A stretch of 64,000 nt of DNA from Escherichia phage vB_EcoM_ESCO8, in sequence record OM386653.1; one strand, written 5' to 3'. Position numbers and translations under genes: made by a program. The notes beneath the pieces were generated by a model. That model did not search any database. It saw only the letters and a list, made by a program, of their open reading frames with translations, and was not told where the DNA came from. Within the stretch, counting starts at the first letter, position 1. Each line of letters starts with the position of its first letter. Of the stretch, positions 1,235-17,234 are shown piece after piece.

Positions 1235-1464
1235 GCTGTACGCTCGACAATAATAATGGTTTGCGGGATCTCGTTTTCTACTACTAACAAGGCTTTTTTC
1301 TGTGTGATAGATATTTTAACACGTTGTAAAGTAGCGGTAAAATCTTTCATTTCATTATGCGCGGATTTAGTGCAATGCCAGATCTCAGGTTTACCTATTT
1401 GCAAGCCGCGTAAAAATTCTGTTTTACCTGTCTTATTCGTGATCATTTGATTCACCTTATCCAA
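1231..1464 (-). CDS. hypothetical protein
   Basis: ORF track 77 aa; start overlaps upstream stop (ATGA). Confidence 0.5.
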   Translation of the reverse strand: MDKVNQMITNKTGKTEFLRGLQIGKPEIWHCTKSAHNEMKDFTATLQRVKISITQKKALLVVENEIPQTIIIVERTA

Positions 1465-1561
1465 TACCGTGGGAAGATAGGATCATGTTAGCCATAGTTG
1501 CAACCAATCCAACCGATAACGCCAGGCCAACTACTACAACCGTGAAAATTTTCTCTAACAT
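1457..1561 (-). CDS. small hydrophobic peptide (34 aa, putative membrane)
   Basis: Manually read ORF MLEKIFTVVVVGLALSVGLVATMANMILSSHGIG, below ORF-track cutoff; single predicted TM helix. Confidence 0.3.
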   Translation of the reverse strand: MLEKIFTVVVVGLALSVGLVATMANMILSSHGIG

Positions 1562-1642
1562 GATTCTACCCTCATTAATGGGCGTTGCCTTATTGCCCCG
1601 CCCTATGTCGTACACTTTACCAGATAACAGCATATTGTCAAA

Positions 1643-1867
1643 CTATTTTTTATAAGGGATCAGTAAACTTCTCGCTATTGCTTCACGTAAACCTTTACTT
1701 TTTATTAGATCTATTGTTGCAGGGTGGCAAGTAAAAGCCTTTGACCATTTTTGATCACCTGGTTTACGGGCGAAAATGTAAACTTCTCCGTCGATTTCAT
1801 CCCAACGAGTATTGCTTGTTAGTTTTTTAAGCGCCATGCTGATTTCTCTTTTAGTTGTGAGCGGCAC
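1643..1867 (-). CDS. hypothetical protein
   Basis: ORF track 74 aa; preceded by conserved leader hairpin 1859-1878. Confidence 0.5.
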   Translation of the reverse strand: MPLTTKREISMALKKLTSNTRWDEIDGEVYIFARKPGDQKWSKAFTCHPATIDLIKSKGLREAIARSLLIPYKK

Positions 1868-1917
1868 TATTGCCGCCCTACGAAATACATTCTACCCGAT
1901 TTATAATTGTTGTCAAA

Positions 1918-2187
1918 CTATTTTTTCAAGCTCGACCAGTCAAAACACGGGGCGATCTCGTTAAAACTTGTACCCTGTAAAGCACATAATTTTTTAGCAA
2001 TAGCCGCCGTAACCTGGCGTTGTACGCGAGGATCTGCTACTGATTGGAGAAAGTAGGCGGCTTTATATGTGATCATGCTTTCGCCTGTTTCCTTGTTAAC
2101 GTGGTGCACGGTTTTAGCCTTATCATCTTTTACCAGGGTGTAACCGGATTCGATGGCCTTGATTGCAACGTCCAAAGATATTTTCAT
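1918..2187 (-). CDS. hypothetical protein
   Basis: ORF track 89 aa. Confidence 0.5.
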   Translation of the reverse strand: MKISLDVAIKAIESGYTLVKDDKAKTVHHVNKETGESMITYKAAYFLQSVADPRVQRQVTAAIAKKLCALQGTSFNEIAPCFDWSSLKK

Positions 2188-2234
2188 GATTTACCTCTTT
2201 ATTGACGGCGGGGAATACTCCCCCGCCTTATTAA

Positions 2235-2435
2235 TTACTCTTCATCGTCGCCGTTATAGTATTCAATGCCGTTTTCATCGGTTACAGTAATGTTAACGCC
2301 ACCGATAGCAACACGATCACGGGCAAACGTCATGGCTTCATTTAAATCTTCAGACCAAAAAATATTGTGACCTTTGCGCGATACGTAAAACATAGTTGGG
2401 ATCATGATTTGTTTCTCTTCTGTTATGAGCGGCAC
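2235..2435 (-). CDS. hypothetical protein
   Basis: ORF track 66 aa; leader hairpin 2427-2446 upstream. Confidence 0.5.
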   Translation of the reverse strand: MPLITEEKQIMIPTMFYVSRKGHNIFWSEDLNEAMTFARDRVAIGGVNITVTDENGIEYYNGDDEE

Positions 2436-2486
2436 TATTGCCGCCCTATGTGATAAACTTTACTACGTTGTTTGCCTAGTGTCAAA

Positions 2487-2771
2487 TTATTTTTTAATGT
2501 TTTGCCCTACAAAATTAATCACTTCCTTAAGCTGTTTCTCAGTCATGATCGTGCCTGGCAATTCTTCTTTGATTTCTTCCGGTAGATAGATATTACCGCG
2601 CCAGGTTAATAAACAACCGTTTTGATCTTCGCAGATAGAATAAGAGAAGATCCACTCATTATCATTCTCAAGCTCCCAAAAGCACAAAAAATCTTCTTTC
2701 CCCAGGTTTTCAACGGTTAAACATAAGCCGCGACGTGCTGCATAGTTGGAAAGTGCTTTTGTGATCTTCAT
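2487..2771 (-). CDS. hypothetical protein
   Basis: ORF track 94 aa; leader hairpin 2791-2812 upstream. Confidence 0.5.
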   Translation of the reverse strand: MKITKALSNYAARRGLCLTVENLGKEDFLCFWELENDNEWIFSYSICEDQNGCLLTWRGNIYLPEEIKEELPGTIMTEKQLKEVINFVGQNIKK

Positions 2772-2825
2772 AGCTTATCTCTTCTTTTAAGGCGGGGGAA
2801 ACCATTTCCCCGCTCTATGAGATAC

Positions 2826-2854
2826 AATATACTACCCGTTCAGTGTGCTGTCAA
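2826..2854 (-). promoter_or_regulatory. sigma70-like early promoter with leader hairpin
   Basis: Minus strand TTGACA-17nt-TATATT followed by hairpin 2791-2812. Confidence 0.5.
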
Positions 2855-3178
2855 TCAATAATCTTCAATATTTTCTACATTGACAAAAGCATGTTTATTT
2901 TCTAAGTTTTCGCCGTACCATTGCCCCATGTTGATTTCTGCGGTGCGCAACCAGGACATGCCGCGTTCTATCTTTTTGCTCGCAATGTCGATCCGGCTTT
3001 TGCATAGTGATTTAGCTTGCAATGTAAAAACACTATTGCCCTGTAATGCTTCCAGGTCATCATGTGCAAGGCGATACTCTTTAAAGCCTGATTCTATCAT
3101 TTCAATCGCATCAAGGAAACGAGCGCGATGATAGAAAAAATCAGAGTTATCCAAATAAACACCGATCACAGATTTCAT
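2855..3178 (-). CDS. hypothetical protein
   Basis: ORF track frame; start moved to internal ATG (MKSVIGV) preceded by AAAGGG RBS. Confidence 0.5.
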   Translation of the reverse strand: MKSVIGVYLDNSDFFYHRARFLDAIEMIESGFKEYRLAHDDLEALQGNSVFTLQAKSLCKSRIDIASKKIERGMSWLRTAEINMGQWYGENLENKHAFVNVENIEDY

Positions 3179-3507
3179 AATTTTACCCTTTTGTTTGCGG
3201 CCTTTGCCGTTTTCAAGATATAGTTTAAAGCATAACAAAAAATTGTCAAGCCTTTAAAGCGTACAACTATAAAACCTATTAAAACACAATGTATAATAAC
3301 ATGGCTATAGTAGCAATACAACATAAAGCCATGCTTGTTTTCCTTCCTTCCTCGTATGCTGGATTTATTACGCTATATTGTACGGGAATAATTTTCATGC
3401 TGTTTCCTTAATGTCTTAAAACGTGGTTTACAATAGAAACAAGCATACAGAAGAAAAAAGATCCTGTCAATAAGATACCGAAAAATAAATGTAAATAGGG
3501 CATGGTT

Positions 3508-3810
3508 TTACTCCTTAAAAAAATCATTGACAATTAAACTGATAACGCCCAGCACCAGATCACCAGGTAGCGCCGCGCTTTCGTTGTTGCTTGTTTGCAC
3601 TTCCTCACTAGTACCAGCATGATAAATCGCATGGTAAGCAATAGTATAATAACCTTTCGTTATTTCTTTAAGATTAATGATTAGCACGTTATTTGTTTCA
3701 TCTTGAAACAATTTAGCGGTGATAGTATTGTTTTCTTTTACACTATCGACTTTTATTGATGGATCATTTACACCAGAAAAAAGAAAAAACGTTTTAGCTA
3801 TGCCGTTCAT
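3508..3810 (-). CDS. hypothetical protein
   Basis: ORF track 100 aa. Confidence 0.5.
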   Translation of the reverse strand: MNGIAKTFFLFSGVNDPSIKVDSVKENNTITAKLFQDETNNVLIINLKEITKGYYTIAYHAIYHAGTSEEVQTSNNESAALPGDLVLGVISLIVNDFFKE

Positions 3811-3857
3811 GTAGTTCTCCTTTGTTGTGTGTATCTTATAACGTGCTTTCTATGTTG

Positions 3858-4259
3858 TCAATCTTTTATCTCGGTGCATTTTGCTAGGGTATACGTTGCA
3901 AGTGCTGACACTAGTTTTTCATTGCTACGATCTGCGGCTGTACTGTGTACTTTTTGAATACTTTTTAACCACGGCGTAAAATTTTGAGTAGTGAGCACAC
4001 TGGTAATAATTTCACATGGCACATCTTCATTTAAGCCATTAACAATAGATTTATCTATTTTTGCCGTTAGTTGTGTAACAGCACCATAAGCGATCATGTG
4101 TGAATCCTCCATGATTTCATCGGGGATCGCATTATTAATAAGCATGACGTTTTCCATTGCATCAACGGCGCTTAATTCTGCTACTGTGGAGGATATCGCC
4201 GCGCTAGATGTTCCAACCATGCCAAAAGAGATTAAACCAGCGATCAATAATTTTTTCAT
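3858..4259 (-). CDS. hypothetical secreted protein (signal peptide)
   Basis: ORF track frame; start at MKKLLIAGLISFGMVGTSSA with GAGG RBS; N-terminal Sec-type signal. Confidence 0.5.
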   Translation of the reverse strand: MKKLLIAGLISFGMVGTSSAAISSTVAELSAVDAMENVMLINNAIPDEIMEDSHMIAYGAVTQLTAKIDKSIVNGLNEDVPCEIITSVLTTQNFTPWLKSIQKVHSTAADRSNEKLVSALATYTLAKCTEIKD

Positions 4260-4267
4260 TTCTTGCC

Positions 4268-4450
4268 TCATATATGTTTTATTGAGATTATATTGTCACT
4301 ATATACAACGTTTTTCAACGTGTCAATAAAAATCTTATTGCCTTCAATCCCCAGGATCACGCCGCTAGTTATGAAGCCATATTGATCACGATATCTGGCG
4401 CATAACCTTTGCCCCTGGGCTAGTGCCTTGCTTATTTCTTCTAATCTCAT
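4268..4450 (-). CDS. hypothetical protein
   Basis: ORF track 60 aa. Confidence 0.4.
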   Translation of the reverse strand: MRLEEISKALAQGQRLCARYRDQYGFITSGVILGIEGNKIFIDTLKNVVYSDNIISIKHI

Positions 4451-4720
4451 TTTAAAGCTCCTGTAAAGCCGTCTAACGTTGATTTATAGGCTTGCCCTGG
4501 CGTTACCATTGCCTATGGGTAACAAGCCTCTATATAAGCTAAAAGGGCGCTTATTGCGCCCTTTTTGTTATTCGTTCCAGTATCTTTTTGTGCTGCGATC
4601 TCTTTTTGTTTTGTTCCGCTTATCGCCTTTTTTGGTGATCTCTTCGTTCCAATTTTTACGCGCCTTGCTGCGGTTGAATTTTTCGATCTGCTGTGATGCG
4701 TTCATGTTTTTTCCTCTTAA

Positions 4721-5080
4721 TTACGCCACGTTATGCTGTTTTGCCAGGGTTACGATCATGCTTGCAATATATAACCAATAATTTTCCCGCTCACGGGTAA
4801 CGGTTGTTTCTTTACTTGTTTCTTTTATGTACTTCCATTCAATTAACAAGTGATCGATCTCGTTATAATCAAAAGCAATATTGATTTCTGACGGTAAACC
4901 TTGTAACCAGGAGGCTATCGCCTTGATCATGTTATGATTGTAACGTTTTTGATTATCGGGATACCAGTATTCAGATTTAAAACGGCGCATCAGTTCGGTG
5001 ATCTTTTCTTTTTCTGTTGTAGTACCATTAAAAGAAATAGCCGACACAATGTAAGTTTTAATTGCTTTTACTGATTTCAT
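4721..5080 (-). CDS. hypothetical protein
   Basis: ORF track 119 aa; leader hairpin 5101-5121 upstream. Confidence 0.55.
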   Translation of the reverse strand: MKSVKAIKTYIVSAISFNGTTTEKEKITELMRRFKSEYWYPDNQKRYNHNMIKAIASWLQGLPSEINIAFDYNEIDHLLIEWKYIKETSKETTVTRERENYWLYIASMIVTLAKQHNVA

Positions 5081-5130
5081 AATCTTATCTCTTTATTGAT
5101 GGCGGGAAACCATTTCCCGCCGTTGTTGTT

Positions 5131-5159
5131 ACTTTACTTATAAATCATGCTACTGTCAA
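5131..5159 (-). promoter_or_regulatory. sigma70-like early promoter with leader hairpin
   Basis: Minus strand TTGACA-17nt-TAAAGT then hairpin GGCGGGAAATGGTTTCCCGCC (5101-5121). Confidence 0.45.
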
Positions 5160-5169
5160 GCGGATATTA

Positions 5170-5337
5170 TTTATTTTTTAACGTTAATGTTCCCAGCTTA
5201 TCAGCGTGACGCAGACCAGGGAAGATCCATTTTCCTGATTCATCTTTTACCGGGGCTTTAAGCGTAGCGCCCAAGTTGGCGGCATTAACTTTACGTGCAA
5301 CGTTGCGAGCGGCTTCACGGGTGGCGAAAGTGATCAT
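5170..5337 (-). CDS. hypothetical small protein (55 aa)
   Basis: Manually read ORF MITFATREAARNVARKVNAANLGATLKAPVKDESGKWIFPGLRHADKLGTLTLKNK with GAGG-type RBS; below ORF-track cutoff. Confidence 0.4.
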
Positions 5338-5408
5338 GGTGTTTTCCTCTTCTCTTTGTTAGGCGGTTGGCTATTCCACCGCCTTGATGAATACAGTTTA
5401 CTCTATTT

Positions 5409-5567
5409 TTATTTCTTTGCAACTACTTTTATATTTTCTTTCTTTGCCTCTTCCACCTGATCCGCCCACTGCTTACCCCACGTTTGAGCGTTATAGTGAT
5501 ATTGACAAAGAGCAACGCCACGTTTTAAACCAGAGATAGACTTTTTACCACATTGGCAAGTTTTCAT
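5409..5567 (-). CDS. hypothetical small Cys-rich protein (52 aa, zinc-ribbon-like)
   Basis: Manually read ORF MKTCQCGKKSISGLKRGVALCQYHY...; CxC...CxxH pattern; AAGGG RBS. Confidence 0.4.
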   Translation of the reverse strand: MKTCQCGKKSISGLKRGVALCQYHYNAQTWGKQWADQVEEAKKENIKVVAKK

Positions 5568-5578
5568 TTTGTGATCCC

Positions 5579-5842
5579 TTAGTTGATAATTGTCAAAGTA
5601 AAATCATAATCTTTTGACAGTTTATATTGCACCTTGTTACCGTATATGTCACCTTTACGTAAAGATCCACGGATACCGATAACATCCTTCACGTCTTTTA
5701 AATTTTTCACGCCTGTAATGTCTTTGTTGAAATACTCGTCATCTGAAAATAAAACTTGACTTGCATTTTTTAACAGTGTGCGGATATTAGCCATTTTGAT
5801 AATCTCTCTTACTATGAGCGGCACTATTGCCGCCCTATGCAT
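5579..5842 (-). CDS. hypothetical protein
   Basis: ORF track 87 aa; hairpin 5806-5825 lies inside the 5' end of this ORF as tracked, so the true start may be an internal ATG. Confidence 0.5.
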   Translation of the reverse strand: MHRAAIVPLIVREIIKMANIRTLLKNASQVLFSDDEYFNKDITGVKNLKDVKDVIGIRGSLRKGDIYGNKVQYKLSKDYDFTLTIIN

Positions 5843-5881
5843 TACATTTTACTGATTTTAGTTATCTTGTCAAGATTATTT

Positions 5882-6109
5882 TTAGTTTAATCCATCCAGG
5901 CACAACAAGCGATCAACATTCAGATCGGTTAGGCTAATCGTTGGCACCTGGTAGGATTCGATGTACTCAACGCTCGACCATTGCCCGAAGTTAGCGACCG
6001 CCCAGCTATTCAAGGAAGAGTGAAGATCATCCCCTTTCTTCTCGGTGATAACTGCTACTACCTGGGAGCTTCCAACCGTACCGGATACGCGAACAATAAC
6101 GATAGCCAT
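5882..6109 (-). CDS. hypothetical protein
   Basis: ORF track 75 aa; leader hairpin 6123-6143 upstream. Confidence 0.5.
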   Translation of the reverse strand: MAIVIVRVSGTVGSSQVVAVITEKKGDDLHSSLNSWAVANFGQWSSVEYIESYQVPTISLTDLNVDRLLCLDGLN

Positions 6110-6154
6110 AATGATAACCTTTCTTTGATTTGGCGGGAAACCATTTCCCGCCCT

Positions 6155-6182
6155 ATGTGATATATCTTACACTAATTTAAAA
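6155..6182 (-). promoter_or_regulatory. sigma70-like early promoter with leader hairpin
   Basis: Minus strand TTGACA-16nt-TAAGAT followed by hairpin 6123-6143. Confidence 0.5.
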
Positions 6183-6286
6183 CGTTGTCAAATTATTTTC
6201 TATTTCTTCCGTAATAGCCTAATTTATGATCTAAGCTAAAACGTTTTGTGAGATAGGTCGAACGATGTTTCATTTTTATATCTCCT

Positions 6287-6526
6287 TTACATTCCAACCA
6301 TCGCGGCGCGGATTGCAGTTTTACTGAACTTGTAACCGTCTGGCGTTTTATCTTGATCCATACTTTCAAGAAATAACATCATATCACGCGCTGCGTCATT
6401 CTTATTGGTGTTAGCTGCGATAAATTCACGCGCAAGATTATAAAAACCTTCATCATTGTTGATCCAAAGGCTTACATTCCAATGAGTTTTGTTTTTGTGA
6501 CCTAAGAACATTTTTGATTTAGCCAT
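6287..6526 (-). CDS. hypothetical protein
   Basis: ORF track 79 aa; leader hairpin 6551-6567. Confidence 0.5.
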   Translation of the reverse strand: MAKSKMFLGHKNKTHWNVSLWINNDEGFYNLAREFIAANTNKNDAARDMMLFLESMDQDKTPDGYKFSKTAIRAAMVGM

Positions 6527-6614
6527 GATGTTAATCTCTTTTTCAGTGAGGCGGGAACTATTCCCGCTCTCTATGTAATACAGTTTACTCTTTTTATTCG
6601 TGCTGTCAATGCTT

Positions 6615-6980
6615 TTATAAATCTTTTTTACGTTTTACATCGCTTGCATGACTGTATACAGTGATCCCATTGTCACGGCAAAAACGGGAAAGGTAGGCAT
6701 AATTTGAAAACTCTTTACCTTCCAGGTTGATAACCTTGCTAAATTCTTCCATTGCTACAGTGTCAAAGTGATCCCCGTATCCATATTGGAACGGCACGTT
6801 TACTACTTCGATCAGTTTACCGCCGATCTCAACGTCAACCATCAAAGAGAAATAAGTATTACCATAAGACTTTTGAAACCAGCGACGGGCGCTAATATGT
6901 ACCGCTTCAATGCTGGATAGTTCAATTTTAGCAGTGTTAGCCAGGGTAGCATAAGCAGAAACATTGATATTTTTAGCCAT
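6615..6980 (-). CDS. hypothetical protein
   Basis: ORF track 121 aa. Confidence 0.55.
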   Translation of the reverse strand: MAKNINVSAYATLANTAKIELSSIEAVHISARRWFQKSYGNTYFSLMVDVEIGGKLIEVVNVPFQYGYGDHFDTVAMEEFSKVINLEGKEFSNYAYLSRFCRDNGITVYSHASDVKRKKDL

Positions 6981-7075
6981 AGTCTTTAATCTCTTTTGAT
7001 TAGTTAGGAGTATTCCCGATAAAAGTTATTATGCTTGTACTATCGTTCGTTGTCAATAGCACAAGACTAAAACTT

Positions 7076-7255
7076 TTAACGATAATCATCATAGGCTTTA
7101 TTGACCTGGCGAATATAGCATTCAAAAGCTAGATCAATAGATTTATATTCACGGATATAATCACCATAGGAAACCACATACATTTCTATAGCTTCCTCAT
7201 ATGCCAAGATGATAGAATCTAAACCTACGATCTCAGTCTTTGCAATAATAGCCAT
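7076..7255 (-). CDS. hypothetical small protein (59 aa)
   Basis: Manually read ORF MAIIAKTEIVGLDSIILAYEEAIEMYVVSYGDY...; just below ORF-track cutoff. Confidence 0.35.
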   Translation of the reverse strand: MAIIAKTEIVGLDSIILAYEEAIEMYVVSYGDYIREYKSIDLAFECYIRQVNKAYDDYR

Positions 7256-7401
7256 GCTTTTATTCCTTAGTAATGTTTCAATCTATATAAGCATTATAGC
7301 TTACTGATTTCAGGTGTCAAGTGATTTTTTATTTCACCTTATGGGGCGTTGCCCCGCTTTATGTGGTACATATTACGGGGCTTGTTTGCATATGTCAAGC
7401 C

Positions 7402-7947
7402 TTACACAATACAATTTTCATAATTTTTTAGGGCTTGTCTTTTTTCCTCTTCTGTCGGCATGTATGGCTGGATCTCTTCCTCTTCCAGGGTAGGCATGAT
7501 TTCTTCCTCTTCCTCCTGGTCTTCCTCTTGCGCTACGGCAACAAGTTTATTGATCTTCTCCTGGGCTTTAATCAATTTTGCATCTAGCACCATTTTAGCG
7601 GTGTTGTATACCGTCCATGCCATGCGTTTTTCTTCGTATGCTTTATCTAGTGCGGCTAATTTAGCGGGATACTCTTCTAACACCTTAAAAGCCGGATCAA
7701 TGCTATATAAGGGATTATTTTTAGCGTCATCGCTTGGATCTGCGGCGCTTGCAATGTCAGCGTTACCATTTGCCAGCCAACCAGGGCGAACGGATCGCGT
7801 CTTTGTGTGCCCGTTGCTCTTTGCCGCTCGATTCCCTATCTGCTCCCCGCTGTACCCTTCCATGTGATCGATCATGTCATCTGGTATTATGCGCGGATCA
7901 TTAGCGTCATGCTTTACCCATGACTGGATCACATATTCACGCCCCAT
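7402..7947 (-). CDS. hypothetical protein with highly acidic E-rich segment
   Basis: ORF track 181 aa; poly-Glu stretch; antisense ORF 7460..7867 judged shadow. Confidence 0.55.
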   Translation of the reverse strand: MGREYVIQSWVKHDANDPRIIPDDMIDHMEGYSGEQIGNRAAKSNGHTKTRSVRPGWLANGNADIASAADPSDDAKNNPLYSIDPAFKVLEEYPAKLAALDKAYEEKRMAWTVYNTAKMVLDAKLIKAQEKINKLVAVAQEEDQEEEEEIMPTLEEEEIQPYMPTEEEKRQALKNYENCIV

Positions 7948-8209
7948 GTTCGTTCGCCTCTTCTGTTAGTAGTTTACACACCTTAAACATGCTTGCCGCG
8001 TCTTTTGACGGTAGCCAGCCTATGCGATACACTCCAGGATCTGGATTCGTTATATCTGTTAATTGAGCGTTACGATGATTAAAGATAGTGTAACCGCCAC
8101 CAGCACGGGGATAAACATTATCTTTAAACCTGATAGCGTATCTCGCCAGGTTGAACGTTGTAGCATGTTCAAAAGCGATCACATTATCAAAAACTTTTAG
8201 AAAAAACAA
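7937..8209 (-). CDS. hypothetical protein
   Basis: ORF track 90 aa. Confidence 0.5.
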   Translation of the reverse strand: MFFLKVFDNVIAFEHATTFNLARYAIRFKDNVYPRAGGGYTIFNHRNAQLTDITNPDPGVYRIGWLPSKDAASMFKVCKLLTEEANEHGA

Positions 8210-8436
8210 GATTATCCTCCCCAGCGTTTAAAGCCCGTTGCACGGTTATTTTTTAACTCTCGTTTTAGTCTCTTGCAACGGTTTACAAGTGCAAACCGTG
8301 CCGGAGTTGTAACAGTAGCGCCGTTTTTGGTGTGAATACTCATTACATATTGTTTCATAAAGTTTTATCCTATGTAAGCGGGAATAGTTCCCGCTTTAAG
8401 ATAGCTTATCAGGTTTTAGTGCAATGTTAACCGTTT

Positions 8437-8799
8437 TTATTCGTAAATTTTACCGCTTTCTACCCATACCATAACACGGCGCATGTTATCCCATGCATCT
8501 TGTCGCAGATTTAAGGCATGCAATTCTTCGGTTGTGCTCATACCTGGTACGGGCTTGCTATATGTTACAAAGAGATCGCCAGCATATTCATAAGCCAGGG
8601 TAAGATCACATTGAATCATCTTTTTAAGCATAGCATTAAGCATCATATTAGCGGCATGTTGATCACGTTTTAGCGGTAGCGTTGCGATCTGTGAGCGATA
8701 GCTTTCGATCCGTGCATCCACTGCATCACGTGGAAGATTTTTCACGTCGTCGCGGAAAGATACCAGGTTTAACATGATAGTATTGATTTGCTTGCTCAT
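8437..8799 (-). CDS. hypothetical protein
   Basis: ORF track 120 aa; leader hairpin 8822-8843 upstream. Confidence 0.55.
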   Translation of the reverse strand: MSKQINTIMLNLVSFRDDVKNLPRDAVDARIESYRSQIATLPLKRDQHAANMMLNAMLKKMIQCDLTLAYEYAGDLFVTYSKPVPGMSTTEELHALNLRQDAWDNMRRVMVWVESGKIYE

Positions 8800-9238: not shown

Positions 9239-9246
9239 GAATATTT

Positions 9247-9876: not shown

Positions 9877-9878
9877 TC

Positions 9879-9907
9879 TTGACAAGCCCAGGGATCGGGC
9901 TTATACT
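9879..9907 (+). promoter_or_regulatory. near-consensus sigma70 promoter (rightward)
   Basis: TTGACA-17nt-TATACT; spacer contains inverted repeat AGCCC/GGGCT; no obvious CDS downstream before repeat region. Confidence 0.5.
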
Positions 9908-10140
9908 GTTTTACATACAGAAGAGGAAGCGCCACCCCCACGGCGTAAAGGCGGGGCTAACATACCAGGGCACTACTGGTTGGAAGGTTGATCGCCGGTA
10001 GCTCGTCTAAAATAAATTTGTAAAGAAATGTAAAGATAAAAATAATCGCTTGCTTTTGTTGTTGGTTATGCTATTCTTATTGTATGGCGAGGGGACACGG
10101 GAGCGCGAGACAAACACCGCCCCTGCGCGTTATTCTCTAA

Positions 10141-10250
10141 ATGAGAAAATTCTCATTTGCTAATGATTCTCATTCTCTTACTGAGAATGATTATCACTTA
10201 CATACTTAAATGATAATGATTCTCATTTACAAATGAAAATGATTATCATA
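10141..10250. repeat. Cluster of Fur-box-like / ATGAGAA-TTCTCAT palindromic repeats
   Basis: Repeated units AATGATTCTCATT, GAGAATGATTATCA, AATGATAATGATTCTCATT, AATGAAAATGATTATCA resembling GATAATGATAATCATTATC. Confidence 0.45.
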
Positions 10251-10269
10251 CGCACACCCATAAAAACAC

Positions 10270-10480
10270 GAAATTGAACTTTTCATTTTTGATTTTTCTA
10301 CGGAAAAAGGCAAAAAACTTTAAATAAACTGGGGAATTTTTAAAAAATTGAAGTTTTCATTTTCAAAATCTGGATAGAAATACGTACAAAAACTTTAAAT
10401 AATTTTGACCAAACTTGAACTTTTCATTTTCAAAATTTGTACCCAAAAATCTGTAAAAACTTTAAATAATTTTGTCCTTT
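10270..10480. repeat. Three tandem ~70-bp direct repeats (iteron-like)
   Basis: Unit TTGAAC/G-TTTTCATTTTCAAAAT...AACTTTAAATAA recurs at 10274, 10348, 10415 with 67-74 bp period. Confidence 0.6.
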
Positions 10481-10688
10481 TTATAAAAATGATTTTACTG
10501 TTCTGTTATAAGTAGTAGTTAAGAGATAGTATGCCTTTTAAAGATCAGATACCATAGTCAAACAAACAAATTAAATACTTTATTAACAGAGTACAGAATA
10601 ATATTTACTCTGGATATATTATTCAGAGGGTGGATTTCCGTACATGAAACCCACACCCCTTTTTATAAAAATAAAAATTTTCAAAATA

Positions 10689-11240
10689 TCAGGAAATATC
10701 AGATTGTGCTTTTAGATAAACAGCAAGGTCTGTATGCCATTTTCCTAAAAGATTTTGTCCTTTCCAACAGTCCTTATTTTCCACATCACGATCCCACATT
10801 CCCATTTTGATACCATAAATAGAATCATAAGGGCTTGCCTCTACGAACTCCTTATCTGCGTAAGCGATAAGTTTATTTTTGAGATCTTCATTTTGTGTGT
10901 ATTTAAGATACAAACCACGCTTGACAATCTTCTCCCGTAAAGAAGTCCAAGTAGCTTCATCGTAATCTTTAACTAATCTACCTAGTCGCTTATAATATGC
11001 CTGTTCTTTTTCTCCTGTATATCTTAGATCTCCGGTTAAAATAGAAGATGCAATGTTGTAATCATAAAACAAACATGCTTTTCTCCACATCATATATTGT
11101 TCCACACAAGTAAATTCAACAGAACTTGTAATAGAATTATTATACTTGGGAGCTAAAGGTTCAATAAAAGATGATAGATACCAGTTGCTAAATTCATCTT
11201 TTGCCGAGAAGAAGAACACATACTTATCAGTAATCCGCAT
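10689..11240 (-). CDS. NADAR-domain protein (YbiA-like)
   Basis: 183 aa; motifs FFFS..EFSNWY, VEQY..W.KA, and C-terminal GIKMGMW...G.N.LGK.H align with E. coli YbiA-type NADAR pattern. Confidence 0.65.
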   Translation of the reverse strand: MRITDKYVFFFSAKDEFSNWYLSSFIEPLAPKYNNSITSSVEFTCVEQYMMWRKACLFYDYNIASSILTGDLRYTGEKEQAYYKRLGRLVKDYDEATWTSLREKIVKRGLYLKYTQNEDLKNKLIAYADKEFVEASPYDSIYGIKMGMWDRDVENKDCWKGQNLLGKWHTDLAVYLKAQSDIS

Positions 11241-12413
11241 TTACATCTCCTTACTGTATACTAATTTGCCACCATATTGTGTAATAATTTTTTGAAGATT
11301 TTCCAAATCAGAAACACTTACTGTTTCTGTATAACCATCTTTCAACTCTCTTGCCGTTAAAATACCAGTTTTTAATTTTTTCTTTATAGCTCTTTCAGCA
11401 GCCCTACATTGTTTCACTGTGCTAAAATCATATAAACAAATACGCCCCATAAAAAACAGATTACGGCTCTTTTGACCGTTTAATCGTCTATCGCTATCTT
11501 TAGATATACCAAACTTAAGAGCAACTATAATATCATTATCTTTAACAATATTAATATATAATTGCTGTTGATTATGACCAGCACACTGTGGACAACCTTG
11601 ACCGAGGCTTAATAAATTACGAGCACTCCCTATCTGCTCACCATGCACAAGACAAAGATATTTAAACTTACCTATAGAAGAGGGTTTGGTAATCCAATCT
11701 ACCCAGACATACCCTTTCCCTTCTACTTCCTTTTTTACCCTATAGGTGATCTGGTCTTCTGTATACTGATAGTTCCCACAACGACACGGAATATACCCTT
11801 GTTTAAGGTTATGTCCTGCAGAGTAAAATTTACCATCACAAACACCTGCTTGAACATATTCATCATGGGAGCAAACAGGACACTCAACCATCCATACTGC
11901 ATCACGCTTGTTACGTTTCCCTGTATTGGTGAAGATAGTGCCTTCCTTAAATTCCCCTGTAGAAAAGAAATCTGCAATATGTTGATCGTCGGACATTGTT
12001 TGTCTCTCCCTCTTACATTGTGGACAACCGCTACCACGTTTAAAATTGTTAATACTTGTAGTATCCCATTTATTACCACAATGACACAACAAATCAAGTT
12101 TTGTTTTATTCCCTTTCCATTCTCCCACGTACCCTAACACCTGATACCCCCTCTTCTGTGCTATCTCTTCCAAGATCGGCAATTCTGTTTCCCATGTTAA
12201 CGGCTTCTTACCAGAACAGATAGGACAACCACGTCCCTTCTTAAAATCATTAATGTTCGTGGTGTTCCACTCTCCATGTTTAGGACAAGATAGCTTAAGT
12301 TTAGTCTTGTTCCCTTTCCATTCACCAACATAACCCAGGATTTGAATATTGCGATTTTTAGCAAGGGGTGTTAATTCTTCTTTATATTGTTCCCATGATT
12401 TTGGTGCTGTCAT
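11241..12413 (-). CDS. T5orf172 (GIY-YIG-like) domain protein with tandem zinc-ribbon modules
   Basis: 390 aa; three repeats of GYVGEWKGNKTKL..C..HG.W.TT.IN.FK.G.GCP.C followed by C-terminal LYINIV..GIS...RRL segment typical of T5orf172. Confidence 0.55.
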   Translation of the reverse strand: MTAPKSWEQYKEELTPLAKNRNIQILGYVGEWKGNKTKLKLSCPKHGEWNTTNINDFKKGRGCPICSGKKPLTWETELPILEEIAQKRGYQVLGYVGEWKGNKTKLDLLCHCGNKWDTTSINNFKRGSGCPQCKRERQTMSDDQHIADFFSTGEFKEGTIFTNTGKRNKRDAVWMVECPVCSHDEYVQAGVCDGKFYSAGHNLKQGYIPCRCGNYQYTEDQITYRVKKEVEGKGYVWVDWITKPSSIGKFKYLCLVHGEQIGSARNLLSLGQGCPQCAGHNQQQLYINIVKDNDIIVALKFGISKDSDRRLNGQKSRNLFFMGRICLYDFSTVKQCRAAERAIKKKLKTGILTARELKDGYTETVSVSDLENLQKIITQYGGKLVYSKEM

Positions 12414-12450
12414 CTATTACTCCTCTTATTAAATCTGGCATCAATACAAG

Positions 12451-12476
12451 AAAACCCGCCGGAGCGGGTTTTTATT
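12451..12476 (-). terminator. Rho-independent terminator (bidirectional)
   Basis: AAAACCCGC-cgga-GCGGGTTTT stem-loop with flanking T/A runs, 3' of ATPase gene. Confidence 0.65.
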
Positions 12477-12487
12477 TGCTGGCTTAC

Positions 12488-13615
12488 TTAAAACACGCTT
12501 GCCAAAGTTGCACCATTGGTGATAGTTGGTTCCAGAACAATACGGAAAGAATCTTCTGGATCATCACTAAACACAACGATTTTACCGCCTGTAATAAGAT
12601 CTGCTTTCATTTTTGTCGCATTCAATGGAATTCGAGCATCTCCTTCATCATCAAAAACCACGTAAGAGCTATTAGCAAGGGCTTCTTTAGAGTCTGCATC
12701 ACTTGGAGATGACAAGTACACGTCTAGTGTGCACGAGCCACCTAAAAAGATTGCAGGTGTGAAGTTATGCCAACTAGATACCCAGCTAACTTTCTGAAGT
12801 TTCCCATTAATAACAACGCTGCTGATATCCCACTTATTACCACCACCCAAAGAAACGCCCATCATAGAGATGCATTCTTTAAAGGATAAATCAGGGTAGA
12901 AATTAAGTTCTTCTACTATACCTTGGATCACATCAAAGGACAACTCTAAACTTACATCCCAAAGCCTTTGGAAATTATCAAAGTGTGCTTTGTTATCCAG
13001 GTTTTTATCTAAATAGTCAATCATAGTTTCTAGTGAGATTTTATCATAATTAAAATTATAAAACACACGACTAGGACGATTTAGAAAGAATTCAGAGATA
13101 AAGCCACTGTTTTTAGTTAGAATAAACAGTTTATTACCACTGCCAGTACCATCTAACAAAGTGAGAAGTGCTTCTTGATCTTGTTTCTTCTCATACACTT
13201 TATCAAACTCGTCAAAAATAATCACTGCTTTGTCGGTGATCTTGCTAATAAGTTCAATGAAATTAGCATCGCTGTAGGCTTGAGTAACCATAATAGTTGG
13301 AATACCTTCTTCTACAAGGTCACGACTAATGAGTTTGGCTAACATAGTTTTACCACTACCCTTAGTTCCTGTCAGAAGCAATCCTGTATTTTTACCTTGT
13401 GCACTCCGGCGATGGAATGTACGGATAACGTGATTTGCTCGTTTTTCTGTTTCACCATACAGAACATCCGGTACACCTGTCAGATTACCACGGCTTAAAA
13501 AATAATTGCCAAGGGGATCACGACTAACAGTATAGAATCCAGGTGGAAGATAGTTAGATTCCACGCCCATATCTTTATTTACACTTACAATATCACCATA
13601 AATCGTGTATTTCAT
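12488..13615 (-). CDS. AAA-type ATPase (paralog A)
   Basis: 375 aa; Walker A GTKGSGKT, Walker B IIFDEFDK; paralogous to 28181..29341. Confidence 0.7.
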   Translation of the reverse strand: MKYTIYGDIVSVNKDMGVESNYLPPGFYTVSRDPLGNYFLSRGNLTGVPDVLYGETEKRANHVIRTFHRRSAQGKNTGLLLTGTKGSGKTMLAKLISRDLVEEGIPTIMVTQAYSDANFIELISKITDKAVIIFDEFDKVYEKKQDQEALLTLLDGTGSGNKLFILTKNSGFISEFFLNRPSRVFYNFNYDKISLETMIDYLDKNLDNKAHFDNFQRLWDVSLELSFDVIQGIVEELNFYPDLSFKECISMMGVSLGGGNKWDISSVVINGKLQKVSWVSSWHNFTPAIFLGGSCTLDVYLSSPSDADSKEALANSSYVVFDDEGDARIPLNATKMKADLITGGKIVVFSDDPEDSFRIVLEPTITNGATLASVF

Positions 13616-13626
13616 TTTAACCCCTT

Positions 13627-14064
13627 TTATTTTTGTTGAGATGAACGAATTAAATCAGCAGCAAATTCAATCAGATACACTTTTGGTGCAATAATGATTT
13701 TTAGCCAATCAAAATTCGAAAAGAAAATAACAAATCCTAAAAAGAAAAAGAAAGCACAGACAACAAGGCCAACAATAGGTAAAGCAGATACTTCACCATA
13801 GCGATCTCGTGACCACAGGCATTCTTTATCTTTAATTGCTTTTACGAGGTTCCGCACAGCAATAAAAGTAATAAACATAAAGCAAATACTAAAAAGTTGC
13901 CATAAACCTGCGGATACTGCTTTCCACACTAATAGTTGATGGATTACTTCTGGAATTTGTTGTTTTCCAAACTCTACAACATCACTCATTGTTTGAATAG
14001 TGACGTTAACCATGTTCAGAAGTACATCCGTTGCTTTATCTGCGATTGCGTTTGTTTTACTCAT
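13627..14064 (-). CDS. hypothetical membrane protein
   Basis: ORF track 145 aa; multiple hydrophobic helices. Confidence 0.55.
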   Translation of the reverse strand: MSKTNAIADKATDVLLNMVNVTIQTMSDVVEFGKQQIPEVIHQLLVWKAVSAGLWQLFSICFMFITFIAVRNLVKAIKDKECLWSRDRYGEVSALPIVGLVVCAFFFFLGFVIFFSNFDWLKIIIAPKVYLIEFAADLIRSSQQK

Positions 14065-14078
14065 TCTTTATTCCTCAC

Positions 14079-14252
14079 TTACCTTTTAAGGAAACCAATC
14101 ATAATGAAGAACCACATCCAGGCAGGAGAGATAATAAAGCCAAAGAAACCGCAAATAACCGCTTTCTTAATCTCTTCCAGACAACCCACCAGGAAAAGAA
14201 CGAGTGAGACTACAATCCAGATAGCCATAAATACTGTAACAAAGAAACTCAT
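14079..14252 (-). CDS. small membrane protein (57 aa)
   Basis: Manually read ORF MSFFVTVFMAIWIVVSLVLFLVGCLEEIKKAVICGFFGFIISPAWMWFFIMIGFLKR; GGAGAAAGG RBS. Confidence 0.4.
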   Translation of the reverse strand: MSFFVTVFMAIWIVVSLVLFLVGCLEEIKKAVICGFFGFIISPAWMWFFIMIGFLKR

Positions 14253-14272
14253 ACCTTTCTCCCGTCTGTATT

Positions 14273-14524
14273 TTAAAATTCAACCACCACTTTATCGAGG
14301 TGCTCTGCTTCAACTTGATCTAATGTTAACACCTCAACTAAACCCTTGTCAATACCTAATTTAATAACATCAACATATTGTCCAAACAGATCCTGGATAG
14401 ATATCTTGTGTTCGACAACAACAACCACTTCATTCCCTTTTGTGAATTCTCTCCATACACGTCCACATTTGAAAATAAAGTCTGCTTCATCTGCTGTTAT
14501 CATTTTAGGTTTGATACTTAACAT
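14273..14524 (-). CDS. hypothetical protein
   Basis: ORF track 83 aa. Confidence 0.5.
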   Translation of the reverse strand: MLSIKPKMITADEADFIFKCGRVWREFTKGNEVVVVVEHKISIQDLFGQYVDVIKLGIDKGLVEVLTLDQVEAEHLDKVVVEF

Positions 14525-14862
14525 TATAAAACTCCGTACTCTGGTTCAATATTATGCTTACGACAAATGGCATCCCAACGCTCATTACCAAAACTTCTTC
14601 CATGTAGTGCATCGTATGCGAAATGTTCTGCCAACCACATTACTACACCATCTGGTTCAGTGTCAAGCGGAATTCGAAACTCTCGATCATAACGCATACG
14701 GAGAACAAACTCATTACCGTCTTCCAGCAGGTGCATATGACTTTTAGCTCGTGATGCCAAATCGAAGAAAGGAGGTTCATCGTTCCAAACGTGACGCTCA
14801 ACTTCAACACCATGATCAACTACCAAAGTGGCAATTACTTCTCTCATTTCTTTACTAAACAT
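14524..14862 (-). CDS. hypothetical protein
   Basis: ORF track 112 aa. Confidence 0.55.
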   Translation of the reverse strand: MFSKEMREVIATLVVDHGVEVERHVWNDEPPFFDLASRAKSHMHLLEDGNEFVLRMRYDREFRIPLDTEPDGVVMWLAEHFAYDALHGRSFGNERWDAICRKHNIEPEYGVL

Positions 14863-14960
14863 ATTAAAGCCCTCCTAATTTAATAGTCCACTCAACACCT
14901 GTTAGATAACTTCTTTACACAAGTATACTAAGAACATATAAGTGATTTTACCAGATATGT

Positions 14961-15314
14961 TTAGCTCCACAAATTATGGAAATACTTAGCAAACAAAATA
15001 CGACCTTCTAAACGCTCTTGCCGTTGTTTTTCATTAACTTCTTCAGGTGGAGTTGAATCCTTAAAAGAGGACTCCATTTTTTCAAGAATTTCTAACCAGT
15101 GTTCTGCTGCTCGTTCTTCCATATAAGGTAGATAGTCACCTTTAGCGTGTGGGTACATCCGACGAAGTAACCCGCTAGGAATTTTAACATTGTTTGTGGC
15201 TATCACTTTTGCACGATATGCAGAAAGTGCGTTGTAGATCAGTTTACTTAGTGTCACATCCAGATCAAGAAGATCACTCTCTTCAAATTGAATTTCATCG
15301 TGTACAATTTTCAT
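14961..15314 (-). CDS. hypothetical protein
   Basis: ORF track 117 aa. Confidence 0.55.
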   Translation of the reverse strand: MKIVHDEIQFEESDLLDLDVTLSKLIYNALSAYRAKVIATNNVKIPSGLLRRMYPHAKGDYLPYMEERAAEHWLEILEKMESSFKDSTPPEEVNEKQRQERLEGRILFAKYFHNLWS

Positions 15315-15325
15315 ATCACTCTCCT

Positions 15326-15616
15326 TTATAGTAAAACACGTTTTGCACTGCTTGGTGCATTGTCGAACATGTTTATCACTTTGTCAAGTTTGTGTATTAA
15401 CTCGTTCGTAATGTTCCACTCTTTGTATGATCTCCATTGTTTCTTATTCTCACCTACCTGGTGTAAAACTTTGATTGGTGCATTCAAACGTACATTGCGT
15501 TCTTTGTCCTCTTCAAAAGAGGCTAACCATTTTTCGTTATGCCCATGAACAGCAATAATAATGCCAAAACCATCAAAAGTTTCTGTAATATTCTTAGTTG
15601 CTAGTGTGATGTTCAT
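15326..15616 (-). CDS. hypothetical protein
   Basis: ORF track 96 aa; first gene of leftward block 10.7-15.6 kb. Confidence 0.55.
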   Translation of the reverse strand: MNITLATKNITETFDGFGIIIAVHGHNEKWLASFEEDKERNVRLNAPIKVLHQVGENKKQWRSYKEWNITNELIHKLDKVINMFDNAPSSAKRVLL

Positions 15617-15675
15617 ATCTAACCTCTTTTGTTACGATACCCACAGAGTACCAGAAACTAATTTCAAATCAAGTA

Positions 15676-15703
15676 TTGACATACATTTTTATTTTGTTAA
15701 GAT
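15676..15703 (+). promoter_or_regulatory. sigma70-like promoter (rightward block)
   Basis: TTGACA-16nt-TAAGAT with TGT immediately upstream, ahead of ORF at 15735. Confidence 0.5.
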
Positions 15704-15734
15704 TAGCGCATACCAAATGAAAGGAGAAAAACAA

Positions 15735-15881
15735 ATGCAAAACATCGAACTAACTTCTATCGAAGCTAAAGAAGCAATGAAGGAAGATAGACGTGTTGAA
15801 CATAACCGTTTTTGCGGTGGTGAGTGGTTTGAGATGGAATTCAGATCGGAAGTTTGGCAAGGGAGTGATGGGGGGGTGTAA
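15735..15881 (+). CDS. hypothetical small protein (48 aa)
   Basis: AAAGGAG RBS then ATG; C-terminal part of ORF-track entry 15561..15881. Confidence 0.4.
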   Translation: MQNIELTSIEAKEAMKEDRRVEHNRFCGGEWFEMEFRSEVWQGSDGGV

Positions 15882-15899
15882 TCAAAAAGGAAAGAAGAA

Positions 15900-16046
15900 A
15901 TGATCTACAAAAATAAGTTCACTGGCTGTCTGCGTAAATTTATTGACAAAAAAGGGTATGTTTCTGTTGACAATGGTGTTACGTGGGTGCAAAATGGCAC
16001 TTCAGAACAACTGATCAAGGCTTTACCTTACTATGAGGAGGTTTAA
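15900..16046 (+). CDS. hypothetical small protein (48 aa)
   Basis: Manually read ORF MIYKNKFTGCLRKFIDKKGYVSVDNGVTWVQNG... with RBS. Confidence 0.35.
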   Translation: MIYKNKFTGCLRKFIDKKGYVSVDNGVTWVQNGTSEQLIKALPYYEEV

Positions 16047-16370
16047 ATGTCAAACAGTCTGTTTAGCGTGTCAATTGCACCACGTGTCAATATCCGTTGT
16101 CAGTTTGTTACTTTACCTGGTGTAACGCATATCACATTAGAATACGATCCTCGCTCACGAGACAACCCAATCACAGGGAAAATTGATTGTGCTTATGGTG
16201 ATTTTGTTATGGATCACCAAACCATCTTATGCTGTGTGCAACGCTTACAGGCAGGATCTTTATACATCTTTAAGAAAACGGTGTTCCAAGAGATTGCTCA
16301 AGCAGTTGAAAGTGGTATGGAGACTCTTAACGCTATGATTGAAGCAGCCAACAAGAAGGAGGTTTTATGA
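16047..16370 (+). CDS. hypothetical protein
   Basis: ORF track 107 aa. Confidence 0.55.
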   Translation: MSNSLFSVSIAPRVNIRCQFVTLPGVTHITLEYDPRSRDNPITGKIDCAYGDFVMDHQTILCCVQRLQAGSLYIFKKTVFQEIAQAVESGMETLNAMIEAANKKEVL

Positions 16371-16624
16371 CACTTTATCACGTAACTACAGAAGGCGACT
16401 GTGAAGGCCGCACTACAAAAGATTTGGGGTATGTTGAAGCAGATTCACCTGAACATGCAATTAAGTATCTGCACTCTATTGGTAAGTATGCTTATTATGA
16501 ATATTATATTTATGAGGTTGAGGAAAATCCTATACAAGTAGCAACACCTATGGTAGAGTTGGAACCTCTTAAAGCAAAAGTTAAAACTGGCAGTACATCT
16601 GGATTTAAGGGGGTAGTACAATGA
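16367..16624 (+). CDS. hypothetical protein
   Basis: ORF track 85 aa; ATGA overlap with upstream gene. Confidence 0.5.
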   Translation: MTLYHVTTEGDCEGRTTKDLGYVEADSPEHAIKYLHSIGKYAYYEYYIYEVEENPIQVATPMVELEPLKAKVKTGSTSGFKGVVQ

Positions 16625-16890
16625 AAATTCGTGATAATATTGCAGACTACATTGTAACTTGTGAAGATGGTACAGATGTTTTGCTCCCGCAACCAATTGT
16701 TTGGGAGGATGGTGAAATGTACCGTGTAGCTACGGAACATTGTAAAGGTATTGACATTAAAGCTCTTTGTGCTATGCTTGTCGAAGATCAAGAATCTGAT
16801 CTCTCAGTTGTAACATACCAAGATGTGTATGAAATCTGTGAAACTTTACTACAAATGCATGAAGATGGACAAGAGGTATTTCCAAAATGA
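16621..16890 (+). CDS. hypothetical protein
   Basis: ORF track 89 aa. Confidence 0.5.
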   Translation: MKIRDNIADYIVTCEDGTDVLLPQPIVWEDGEMYRVATEHCKGIDIKALCAMLVEDQESDLSVVTYQDVYEICETLLQMHEDGQEVFPK

Positions 16891-17087
16891 CAGAATGGGT
16901 AAAAGTAGAAGATCCATACGATATCCCACTAGGTGAGTATGTGGTGGTAATGGAAGATGGTGAAAAAGGGTATTGTGAAGTGCATAAAAGTATGTCTGGT
17001 AAGATTATTGTGGTGAACCATCATTTTCACTTTGATTACCCTCCTATTGTGGCATATATGCCTTTACCTAAATATGAAGGGGATTAA
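16887..17087 (+). CDS. hypothetical protein
   Basis: ORF track 66 aa. Confidence 0.5.
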   Translation: MTEWVKVEDPYDIPLGEYVVVMEDGEKGYCEVHKSMSGKIIVVNHHFHFDYPPIVAYMPLPKYEGD

Positions 17088-17234
17088 ATGTTATTCTTTA
17101 GACTTAATATTGCTTTTTGTTTGTTTGCAAACATTGCATTCTGGGTATTGGGTAGTGTAAAATTAGGCTACTTCTTTATTGTACTACAAGCTATTTGTTT
17201 AGCTGGTCAAATAATCACTAAGGGGCGAGTATGA
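17088..17234 (+). CDS. small hydrophobic peptide (48 aa)
   Basis: Manually read ORF MLFFRLNIAFCLFANIAFWVLGSVKLGYFFIVLQAICLAGQIITKGRV. Confidence 0.3.
   Translation: MLFFRLNIAFCLFANIAFWVLGSVKLGYFFIVLQAICLAGQIITKGRV

Follow-up and report, generated by a model that had tools for sequence, protein, structure and literature searches.

We analyzed a 64,000-nucleotide stretch of the genome of Escherichia phage vB_EcoM_ESCO8 (OM386653.1; the whole stretch is called the window below), and in particular seven very small open reading frames (ORFs) that lie among the small genes at its start. This run of small genes occupies the minus strand from about position 1 to 15600 and the plus strand from 15561 onwards. 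About 290 phage records have matches to bases 1-18000. The top ones are Escherichia phages outra (98.7%), EmilieFrey/Bas61, ESCO32, UAB_1, muut and phi92, and all of these belong to Justusliebigvirus. By its sequence the window is assigned to this genus (Stephanstirmvirinae), that is, to a phi92-like E. coli myovirus. A scan of the window stretch for tRNA genes returned none, and an Rfam scan of the candidate region found no family, antisense RNA families included. An initial annotation of the window had listed four hydrophobic ORFs below 60 amino acids (aa) and suspected two more on the minus strand in 3290-3510. The coordinates and strands of the four are exact, and the two suspected frames correspond to c5 and c6 in the list below, in which c7 was added by us.

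c1: 1457..1561, minus strand, 34 aa, one uncharged hydrophobic run, Shine-Dalgarno sequence GAGGG-N7-ATG
c2: 9247..9342, minus strand, 31 aa, one hydrophobic run, weak Shine-Dalgarno sequence AAGG-N10
c3: 14079..14252, minus strand, 57 aa, two hydrophobic runs, Shine-Dalgarno sequence GGGAG-N6-ATG
c4: 17088..17234, plus strand, 48 aa, two hydrophobic runs, Shine-Dalgarno sequence GAAGGGG-N5
c5: 3279..3398, minus strand, 39 aa, one hydrophobic run, Shine-Dalgarno sequence AAGGA-N6-ATG
c6: 3408..3503, minus strand, 31 aa, one hydrophobic run, Shine-Dalgarno sequence AAGGAG-N7-ATG
c7: 3175..3324, minus strand, 49 aa, no Shine-Dalgarno sequence in range, annotated in some GenBank records

Taken together, the comparisons indicate that c1, c2, c4 and c5 are real genes, that c3 very probably is one, that c6 is a probable one and that c7 is probably spurious. 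Each of c1 to c6 lies on the local coding strand and fills a gap between larger genes. The ribosome-binding sites that had been called plausible can be read for all six: a Shine-Dalgarno sequence 5-10 nt upstream of the start is good for c1, c3, c4, c5 and c6, and weak for c2, which has a good one in phage ESCO13. Hydropathy profiles show uncharged stretches of membrane-spanning length in every one of the six, as expected from the initial description of small hydrophobic peptides between larger genes. The single transmembrane (TM) helix that had been predicted throughout fits the one hydrophobic run of c1, c2, c5 and c6 but does not fit c3 and c4, which have two uncharged runs of 19-25 residues each with charged residues in between.

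Codon usage was scored as log-odds, with the window's 28 long ORFs as the training set. On this scale c1 to c4 reach +0.13 to +0.19 (c1, +0.19; c3, +0.16), which places them around the 85-90th percentile of small ORFs. The upper end of that distribution consists mostly of annotated small genes, and the null median is -0.2. Sequence comparisons were made mainly with GenBank phage records. They were complemented by scans of IMG/VR, in which the neighboring AAA ATPase as query led to four loci and a back-translated c1 motif to five. For c1, c2 and c5 the frame is kept and non-synonymous changes are the fewer (pN/pS 0.12-0.57 over the three). The alignments show these three ORFs kept at fixed length and motif across genera or subfamilies, under purifying selection.

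Hydrophobicity by itself is weak evidence for gene status. In 1..18500 there are 132 ORFs with a length of 28-60 aa. A Kyte-Doolittle(19) value of at least 1.9 is found in 17 of them, and 10 of the 17 are non-candidates that are antisense or overlapping and nearly all without a Shine-Dalgarno sequence. What does set c1 to c5 apart is their position, strand, Shine-Dalgarno sequences, codon usage and conservation. Ten equally hydrophobic frames in 18.5 kb are nevertheless a point in favor of a different explanation, in which the candidates are chance open frames in AT-/T-rich intergenic DNA, hydrophobic through U-rich codons and conserved through the near-identity of genomes within the genus. 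The same explanation would suit c3, c4, c6 and c7 in that all genomes known to have them are at least 95% identical, c4 to c7 in that their synonymous to non-synonymous ratios are indistinguishable from neutral, and c6 and c7 in that their codon scores are negative. It does not predict that length and motifs stay the same in c1, c2 and c5 when amino-acid identity is down to 42-59% and synonymous sites are saturated, nor that a syntenic orthologue of c4 exists at 33% identity and natural indels of c4 stay in frame, nor that all candidates but c7 fill a gap on the coding strand behind a correctly spaced Shine-Dalgarno sequence. For the set as a whole we regard chance as very unlikely. It holds for c7 only, and for c6 it is possible.

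The c1 product, MLEKIFTVVVVGLALSVGLVATMANMILSSHGIG, is a 34-aa protein with a single predicted TM segment, and it matches phrog_14631 over residues 1-34 of 34 (E = 1.3e-22). The 34-codon ORF recurs in three lineages, namely Justusliebigvirus, Phapecoctavirus (ESCO13) and Vequintavirinae (A5-4, CarlMeissner, rV5_ev147 and phita32). The rV5-type copies have 56-59% identity with the length kept, and the C-terminus (L/V)(V/I)ATMANxILSSxGIG is kept in every copy. With tblastn, a c1 copy at no less than 80% identity was found in 150 phage records, and an exhaustive HMMER search of a large protein database with c1 returned two clusters. Codon position 3 accounts for 10 of the 16 variant sites, and pN/pS is 0.12-0.36. 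In 28 sampled records c1 is annotated in about 8, and about 20 (~70%) have no feature of any kind beneath it.

Upstream of c1 lies a regulatory element whose promoter was found by consensus scan and is of the near-consensus sigma-70 type.

c1 promoter and 5' hairpin: 1580..1641, minus strand, TTGACA at 1641..1636, 16-nt spacer, TAAAGT at 1619..1614, GC hairpin at 1603..1580

The hairpin has a folding energy of -14.9 kcal/mol (z = -4.2), and c1 is the first cistron of what can be described as a promoter-hairpin-c1-g1231 cassette. A 58-aa version of c1 (start at 1633) overlaps the promoter and was rejected; since that start lies within the promoter, the 34-aa start, which the initial annotation had used, is taken as the correct one. 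The 61-63-aa versions in some records and databases were set aside as translations of the promoter-hairpin cassette. The cassette corresponds to a block (1233..1649) shared with Vequintavirus CarlMeissner at 87.5% nucleotide identity, one edge of which is near the promoter and the other at the stop of the gene. These bounds suggest exchange by whole cassettes. Separately, the promoter-hairpin element alone (1557-1641) matches Klebsiella phage KP13-26 and the T7-like Kayfunavirus CLBP1 at ~80% over 67-85 nt, and the c1-type regulatory element therefore occurs beyond the rV5/phi92 group.

The second single-TM candidate, c2, encodes a 31-aa protein with a predicted C-terminal TM anchor, MIKKENSLTVGTINAIILAVPFWIVVAVIIF. 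It is present in 111 phage records and annotated in about 19 of 28 sampled ones. The ESCO13 record annotates it as a 96-nt coding sequence (CDS), preceded there by a promoter, a hairpin and a GAGG Shine-Dalgarno sequence of its own, and a divergent IMG/VR contig, L006, carries an orthologue at 55% identity that also has its own promoter-hairpin cassette. Variation is concentrated at codon position 3 (15 of 22 variant sites, p = 0.0009) and pN/pS is 0.15-0.50. Among the PHROG profiles searched c2 has no family. Based on these patterns, we consider c2 to be a real gene. An in-frame upstream extension (GTG at 9399, 50-aa version) is absent in ESCO13 and L006 and hence not conserved. The stop of a six-codon mini-ORF, MQDGQR (9396..9416, minus strand), overlaps this GTG as GTGA, the GTG being in frame with c2, and the mini-ORF has a strong AAGGAGG-type Shine-Dalgarno sequence. 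As a leader peptide for c2 it was rejected: its second codon is a stop in L004 and its Shine-Dalgarno sequence is lost in L005, both close relatives, and it is probably non-functional.

Three candidates overlap or adjoin one another in 3175-3503. The 39-aa c5 product, MKIIPVQYSVINPAYEEGRKTSMALCCIATIAMLLYIVF, is predicted to be tail-anchored and matches phrog_10979 (annotated 'membrane protein', category moron/host takeover) over residues 6-39 of 39 (E = 1.2e-8). Its homologues, at 42-50% identity, include gp148 of Phapecoctavirus ESCO13 and gp259 of phAPEC8, each with its own promoter (the phAPEC8 record annotates one directly upstream), and proteins of 52-kb Rosemountvirus Salmonella phages. 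A motif at the head of the protein, V-x-Y-x-V-x-NPA-xx-EG, is invariant in four aligned members and precedes the C-terminal anchor. A profile built from four c5-family sequences retrieves 12 clusters, and those with a named source are all phage proteins. Out of c5, c6 and c7, only c5 has homologues in other phage genera, and we assign it as a real gene and a member of phrog_10979. In Justusliebigvirus records it is almost never annotated, the callers picking c7 and c6 in its place. Records in which c7 is called with 150 nt and c6 with 96 nt, but c5 is not called, include those of BASEL phages, Nernie and others (loci L002, L017 and L019).

The hydrophobic 31-aa ORF c6, MPYLHLFFGILLTGSFFFCMLVSIVNHVLRH, is a probable gene that is unproven. 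Its Shine-Dalgarno sequence is strong, its ATG lies 5 nt past the stop of the upstream gene and its stop 9 nt ahead of the c5 ATG, the frame is open and free of indels in 13 genomes, and c6 is annotated in about one third of the annotated genus records among those listed. Counting against it, c6 is confined to Justusliebigvirus, has no PHROG match and shows two synonymous versus three non-synonymous variants. A 41-aa version from a TTG start has a sub-threshold similarity to the Pfam viral 'small hydrophobic protein' (12.4 bits, cut-off 27).

The evidence on c7 suggests that it is probably not a gene. It overlaps both c5 and a promoter-like site of the next gene (TTGACA at 3249, N16, TAAACT), and a 1-nt T insertion shifts its frame in 2 of 13 sequences, L004 and JLBYU50, which are independent. 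The insertion falls in the promoter spacer and lengthens it from 16 to 17 nt, which is tolerable for a promoter. Two synonymous versus six non-synonymous variants, a codon score of -0.08, no homologue beyond the genus and no PHROG family complete the picture.

This change in the spacer, and a change of the -10 element from TAAACT to TAAAAT, are more in keeping with a promoter at c7 than with a protein. The explanation could be extended to the whole set by supposing that the conserved DNA is regulatory, made of promoters and 5' hairpins, with the open frames as by-products. The elongated versions of c1 described above, which are translated promoter-hairpin cassette, would be further examples, as would a TTGACA-N17-TATGCT site within c6. 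In half of the genomes, however, the TTGACA within c6 is TTGTCA, and the site is hence not a conserved promoter. Moreover, the cassettes of c1, c2 and c5 lie upstream of the ORF, the variation within each ORF is codon-position-specific, and c3 and c4 have no strong promoter match. As an account of the candidates in general, we consider it highly improbable that they are by-products of regulatory DNA.

The two remaining candidates have two hydrophobic segments each. c4 is gp211 of phi92 and is predicted to be a 48-aa helical-hairpin membrane protein. It matches phrog_27111 over residues 1-48 of 48 (E = 1.1e-35), and AlphaFold2 models it as a helix at residues 2-21, a turn and a helix at 24-47. 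Its ATG directly abuts the TAA of the upstream gene and its stop overlaps the next start as ATGA, so that c4 is apparently translationally coupled at both ends. Contig L006 carries a 44-aa orthologue at 33% identity, whose immediate neighbors on the two sides are the orthologues of the genes that flank c4, again with an AAGGAGG sequence and an ATGA overlap. This syntenic orthologue provides for c4 the evidence of coding that substitutions provide for c1, c2 and c5, and a natural c4 variant has an in-frame deletion of one codon. We regard c4 as a real gene on these grounds.

c3, which is gp219 of phi92, is very probably a real gene that is restricted to the genus. It matches phrog_22950 over residues 1-57 of 57 (E = 6.9e-40). 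The gap that it occupies measures 208 nt, of which 20 nt separate c3 from the previous stop and 14 nt from the next start. The full-length genus matches listed, 17 in number, show no indel and all have at least 98.4% identity. Genus matches covering at least 80% of the c3 query number 55. Both c3 and c4 are annotated in 7 of 7 full-length Justusliebigvirus records examined, and a search of 5.8 billion proteins with the two returned same-cluster sequences only. Beyond the genus, c3 has weak two-segment counterparts in ESCO13, gp178 (26% identity) and gp174. The invariance of c3 relative to its flanks (Fisher p = 0.005) was discarded as a signal, because equally quiet 100-nt windows occur nearby.

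The neighborhood of c3 is an operon with an AAA ATPase. The ATPase is presumably the 375-aa protein at 12488..13615 (minus strand), which is called 'FtsH-like protease' or 'ATPase or Zn metalloprotease' in the records of relatives; a Pfam search gave AAA/P-loop domains only and no peptidase domain. The next gene, at 11241..12413, encodes a CapR-domain/T5orf172-type endonuclease and is followed by a gene for a NADAR protein. ESCO13 (locus L011) has two further two-segment micro-membrane proteins, of 58 and 54 aa, encoded at 2096..2272 and 3060..3224 within the operon that leads up to the same AAA ATPase, at positions other than that of c3. Small hairpin membrane proteins thus appear to have been repeatedly gained and lost in this operon.

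Another possibility is that the candidates are real small membrane proteins that serve the phage's own program, either in holin/antiholin-like timing of lysis or as anchors or assembly partners of neighboring proteins. In such a scheme c3 would act with the adjacent 145-aa protein and the AAA ATPase operon, and c4 with the flanking 66-aa and 142-aa proteins. The coupling-type spacing of c3 and c4 within operons fits this, as does the weak match of the 145-aa neighbor to a PHROG 'membrane protein' family. So does the presence of ESCO13 gp174, a different 54-aa two-segment protein, at the place equivalent to c3 upstream of the same AAA ATPase. In contrast, contig L006 has the ATPase operon with a gap of 42 nt and no micro-ORF at the c3 position, which led us to reject c3 as an obligatory partner of the ATPase. 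No candidate matches a holin or spanin family in Pfam, the genes lie amid early genes with sigma-70 promoters rather than in a lysis cassette, and c1, c2 and c5 are stand-alone cassettes whose neighbors differ between phages. We consider a role in the phage program unlikely for the candidates as a group.

The placement of the ORFs in an early region, also made in the initial annotation, is borne out by the promoters. At least 12 minus-strand cassettes have TTGACA separated by a spacer of 16-17 nt from a -10 element, behind which a GC hairpin lies in the 5' untranslated region (UTR). They are given here by the first base of TTGACA.

Promoter-hairpin cassettes, minus strand: 841, 1641, 1916, 2485, 2854 and 5159
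Promoter-hairpin cassettes, minus strand: 5873, 6191, 6609, 7398, 8882 and 9238

Most of the hairpins fit (C/G)(A/G)TAG(A/G)GCGG...CCGC(C/T), with energies of -14 to -16 kcal/mol (z = -3.3 to -5.1). They lie downstream of the -10 element and have no U tract, and because of this a terminator function is doubtful. c1, c2 and c5 each have, here or in relatives, their own sigma-70-type promoter, 5' GC hairpin and Shine-Dalgarno sequence. The phAPEC8 record labels equivalent sites as promoters, and phage rV5 has been reported to have promoters of the sigma-70 type and 88 mainly small ORFs in one block (PMC3606486). Dense small genes, most of them behind near-consensus sigma-70 promoters, support the view that the region is of the early type.

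Within the small-gene region, about 9900-10690 is an ORF-poor, AT-rich stretch with two kinds of repeat, at 10158-10248 and 10270-10477. One kind is TGAnAATGATTnTCA, in four copies 23-29 nt apart, and the other is a 67-nt direct repeat in three copies. Two sites in the stretch match the E. coli Fur-box consensus, GATAATGATAATCATTATC, with three mismatches, where 0.05 would be expected by chance in the window. The stretch could contain clustered sites for binding of Fur, or it could be an origin/iteron region. The small-gene region of rV5 also has an ORF-free block (PMC3606486).

We consider it likely that the flagged ORFs, with c6 only probable and c7 set aside, are genuine genes for very small inner-membrane proteins in an early accessory region, whose products would act as dispensable factors at the host membrane. 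Host RNA polymerase would transcribe the genes early and the proteins would insert into the host inner membrane, c1 with an N-terminal TM segment and a conserved C-terminal tail, c2 and c5 as tail-anchored proteins with a short polar N-terminus in the cytoplasm, and c3 and c4 as two-helix hairpins. There they may bind or perturb host membrane proteins involved in transport, DNA entry and superinfection, or envelope homeostasis. In c1 and c5 polar motifs are conserved, which speaks more for a specific partner than for general damage to the membrane. That the candidates are non-essential is argued from their sporadic distribution and from a nonsense allele of c1. The initial annotation had named host takeover or exclusion as a frequent role of such peptides; for the present candidates, none of which resembles an exclusion, lysis or toxin family in Pfam, such a role is a guess.

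Several observations weigh against this reading. The c1 orthologue in the Vequintavirus DrSchubert (locus L014, 1028-1129) has an in-frame stop at codon 16, and the DrSchubert record annotates a different ORF that overlaps it; it is this allele from which we argue that c1 is dispensable. The codon score is about 0 for c5 and -0.17 for c6, that is, neutral or negative. In nucleotide searches c3 and c4 do not occur outside one genus, within which identity is no less than 96%, so that substitution tests are without power: c3 has one variant in total, and c4 has five synonymous versus four non-synonymous substitutions. Single-sequence AlphaFold2 models c3 as one continuous long helix, which leaves its topology unsettled. 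Membrane insertion is deduced from hydropathy alone, and our literature search turned up neither a transcriptome nor a Ribo-seq study for phages of this group.

Conservation in related phages and frameshifts had been named at the outset as checks for and against the ORFs. c1, c2 and c5 are conserved across genera and c4 in L006, but c6 is found in the genus only and c3 has weak counterparts only. A frameshift was found for c7 only, which the initial annotation had not listed, and c1 has its nonsense codon in one Vequintavirus.

A more specific possibility concerns the two candidates with the widest conservation, c1 and c5. The former is common to two phage subfamilies, the latter to Stephanstirmvirinae and the unrelated 52-kb Rosemountvirus. 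The two could be mobile 'micro-effectors' that travel in their own cassettes and act on a defined target in the host inner membrane, thereby blocking superinfection or disabling the host. We put this forward tentatively, as a possibility that is far from probable. If true, they would constitute a new family of phage-host interaction factors, and c1 and c5 are in any case cheap, well-defined targets for toxicity and superinfection-exclusion assays.

The genes are already present in public annotations and PHROGs, are of an ordinary, catalogued kind, and imply no new principle. They do indicate that genes for membrane proteins of fewer than 60 codons are real yet unevenly annotated in therapeutic and BASEL-type coliphages of this group, which is in wide use. 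The initial description of the ORFs as missed by gene calling is apt for c1 and c5, less so for c2, and does not apply to c3 and c4. We propose as corrections the 34-aa start for c1, c5 instead of c7, and c6 as a probable gene; corrected calls would help pangenome analyses and screens for host-takeover factors.

PHROG profiles match four candidates, c1, c3, c4 and c5, essentially end to end. GenBank counterparts of the same length are gp219 and gp211 of phi92, gp148 and gp162 of ESCO13, gp259 of phAPEC8, and bas61_0135, bas61_0110, bas61_0103 and bas61_0094 of EmilieFrey. These PHROG and GenBank counterparts are the same proteins or direct homologues, and the differences are strain-level substitutions only. 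None of the candidates has similarity to a protein of known function, and the neighboring genes, which belong throughout to PHROGs of unknown function, offer no clue to one. In Pfam (E of at most 1), no candidate matches an exclusion, lysis, holin, spanin or toxin family, superinfection-immunity families included, the one exception to the absence of matches being the 41-aa version of c6.

Among known systems, phages have small membrane proteins by which superinfection is blocked or the envelope of the host modulated, such as T4 Imm, T4 Sp, HK97 gp15 and T4 rI. The candidates are like them in being small, in having one or two TM segments, in being putatively non-essential accessory proteins and in lying behind early, host-type promoters. 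They differ in having no sequence similarity to them and in their length, 31-57 aa versus roughly 80-100 aa. In bacteria, AcrZ, MgtS and MgrB are small membrane regulators and Hok, Ldr, TisB and Ibs are type I toxins; proteins of these kinds bind larger membrane proteins or depolarize the membrane. The likeness here is a length of ~20-50 aa and a single TM helix. Unlike them, the candidates are phage-encoded behind their own constitutive-type promoters, with no similarity in Pfam and no antisense RNA in Rfam.

At the level of gene organization, the closest likeness is to the PeSL cassettes in the hyperplastic regions of T4-type phages (PMC2839356, PMC4122927), where a repeated sigma-70-like promoter and a GC stem-loop likewise flank small ORFans in a variable region. 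The lineage is different here, being Stephanstirmvirinae, and the hairpin resembles a 5'-UTR hairpin, whereas the PeSL stem-loop is described as a terminator (PMC2839356, PMC4122927).

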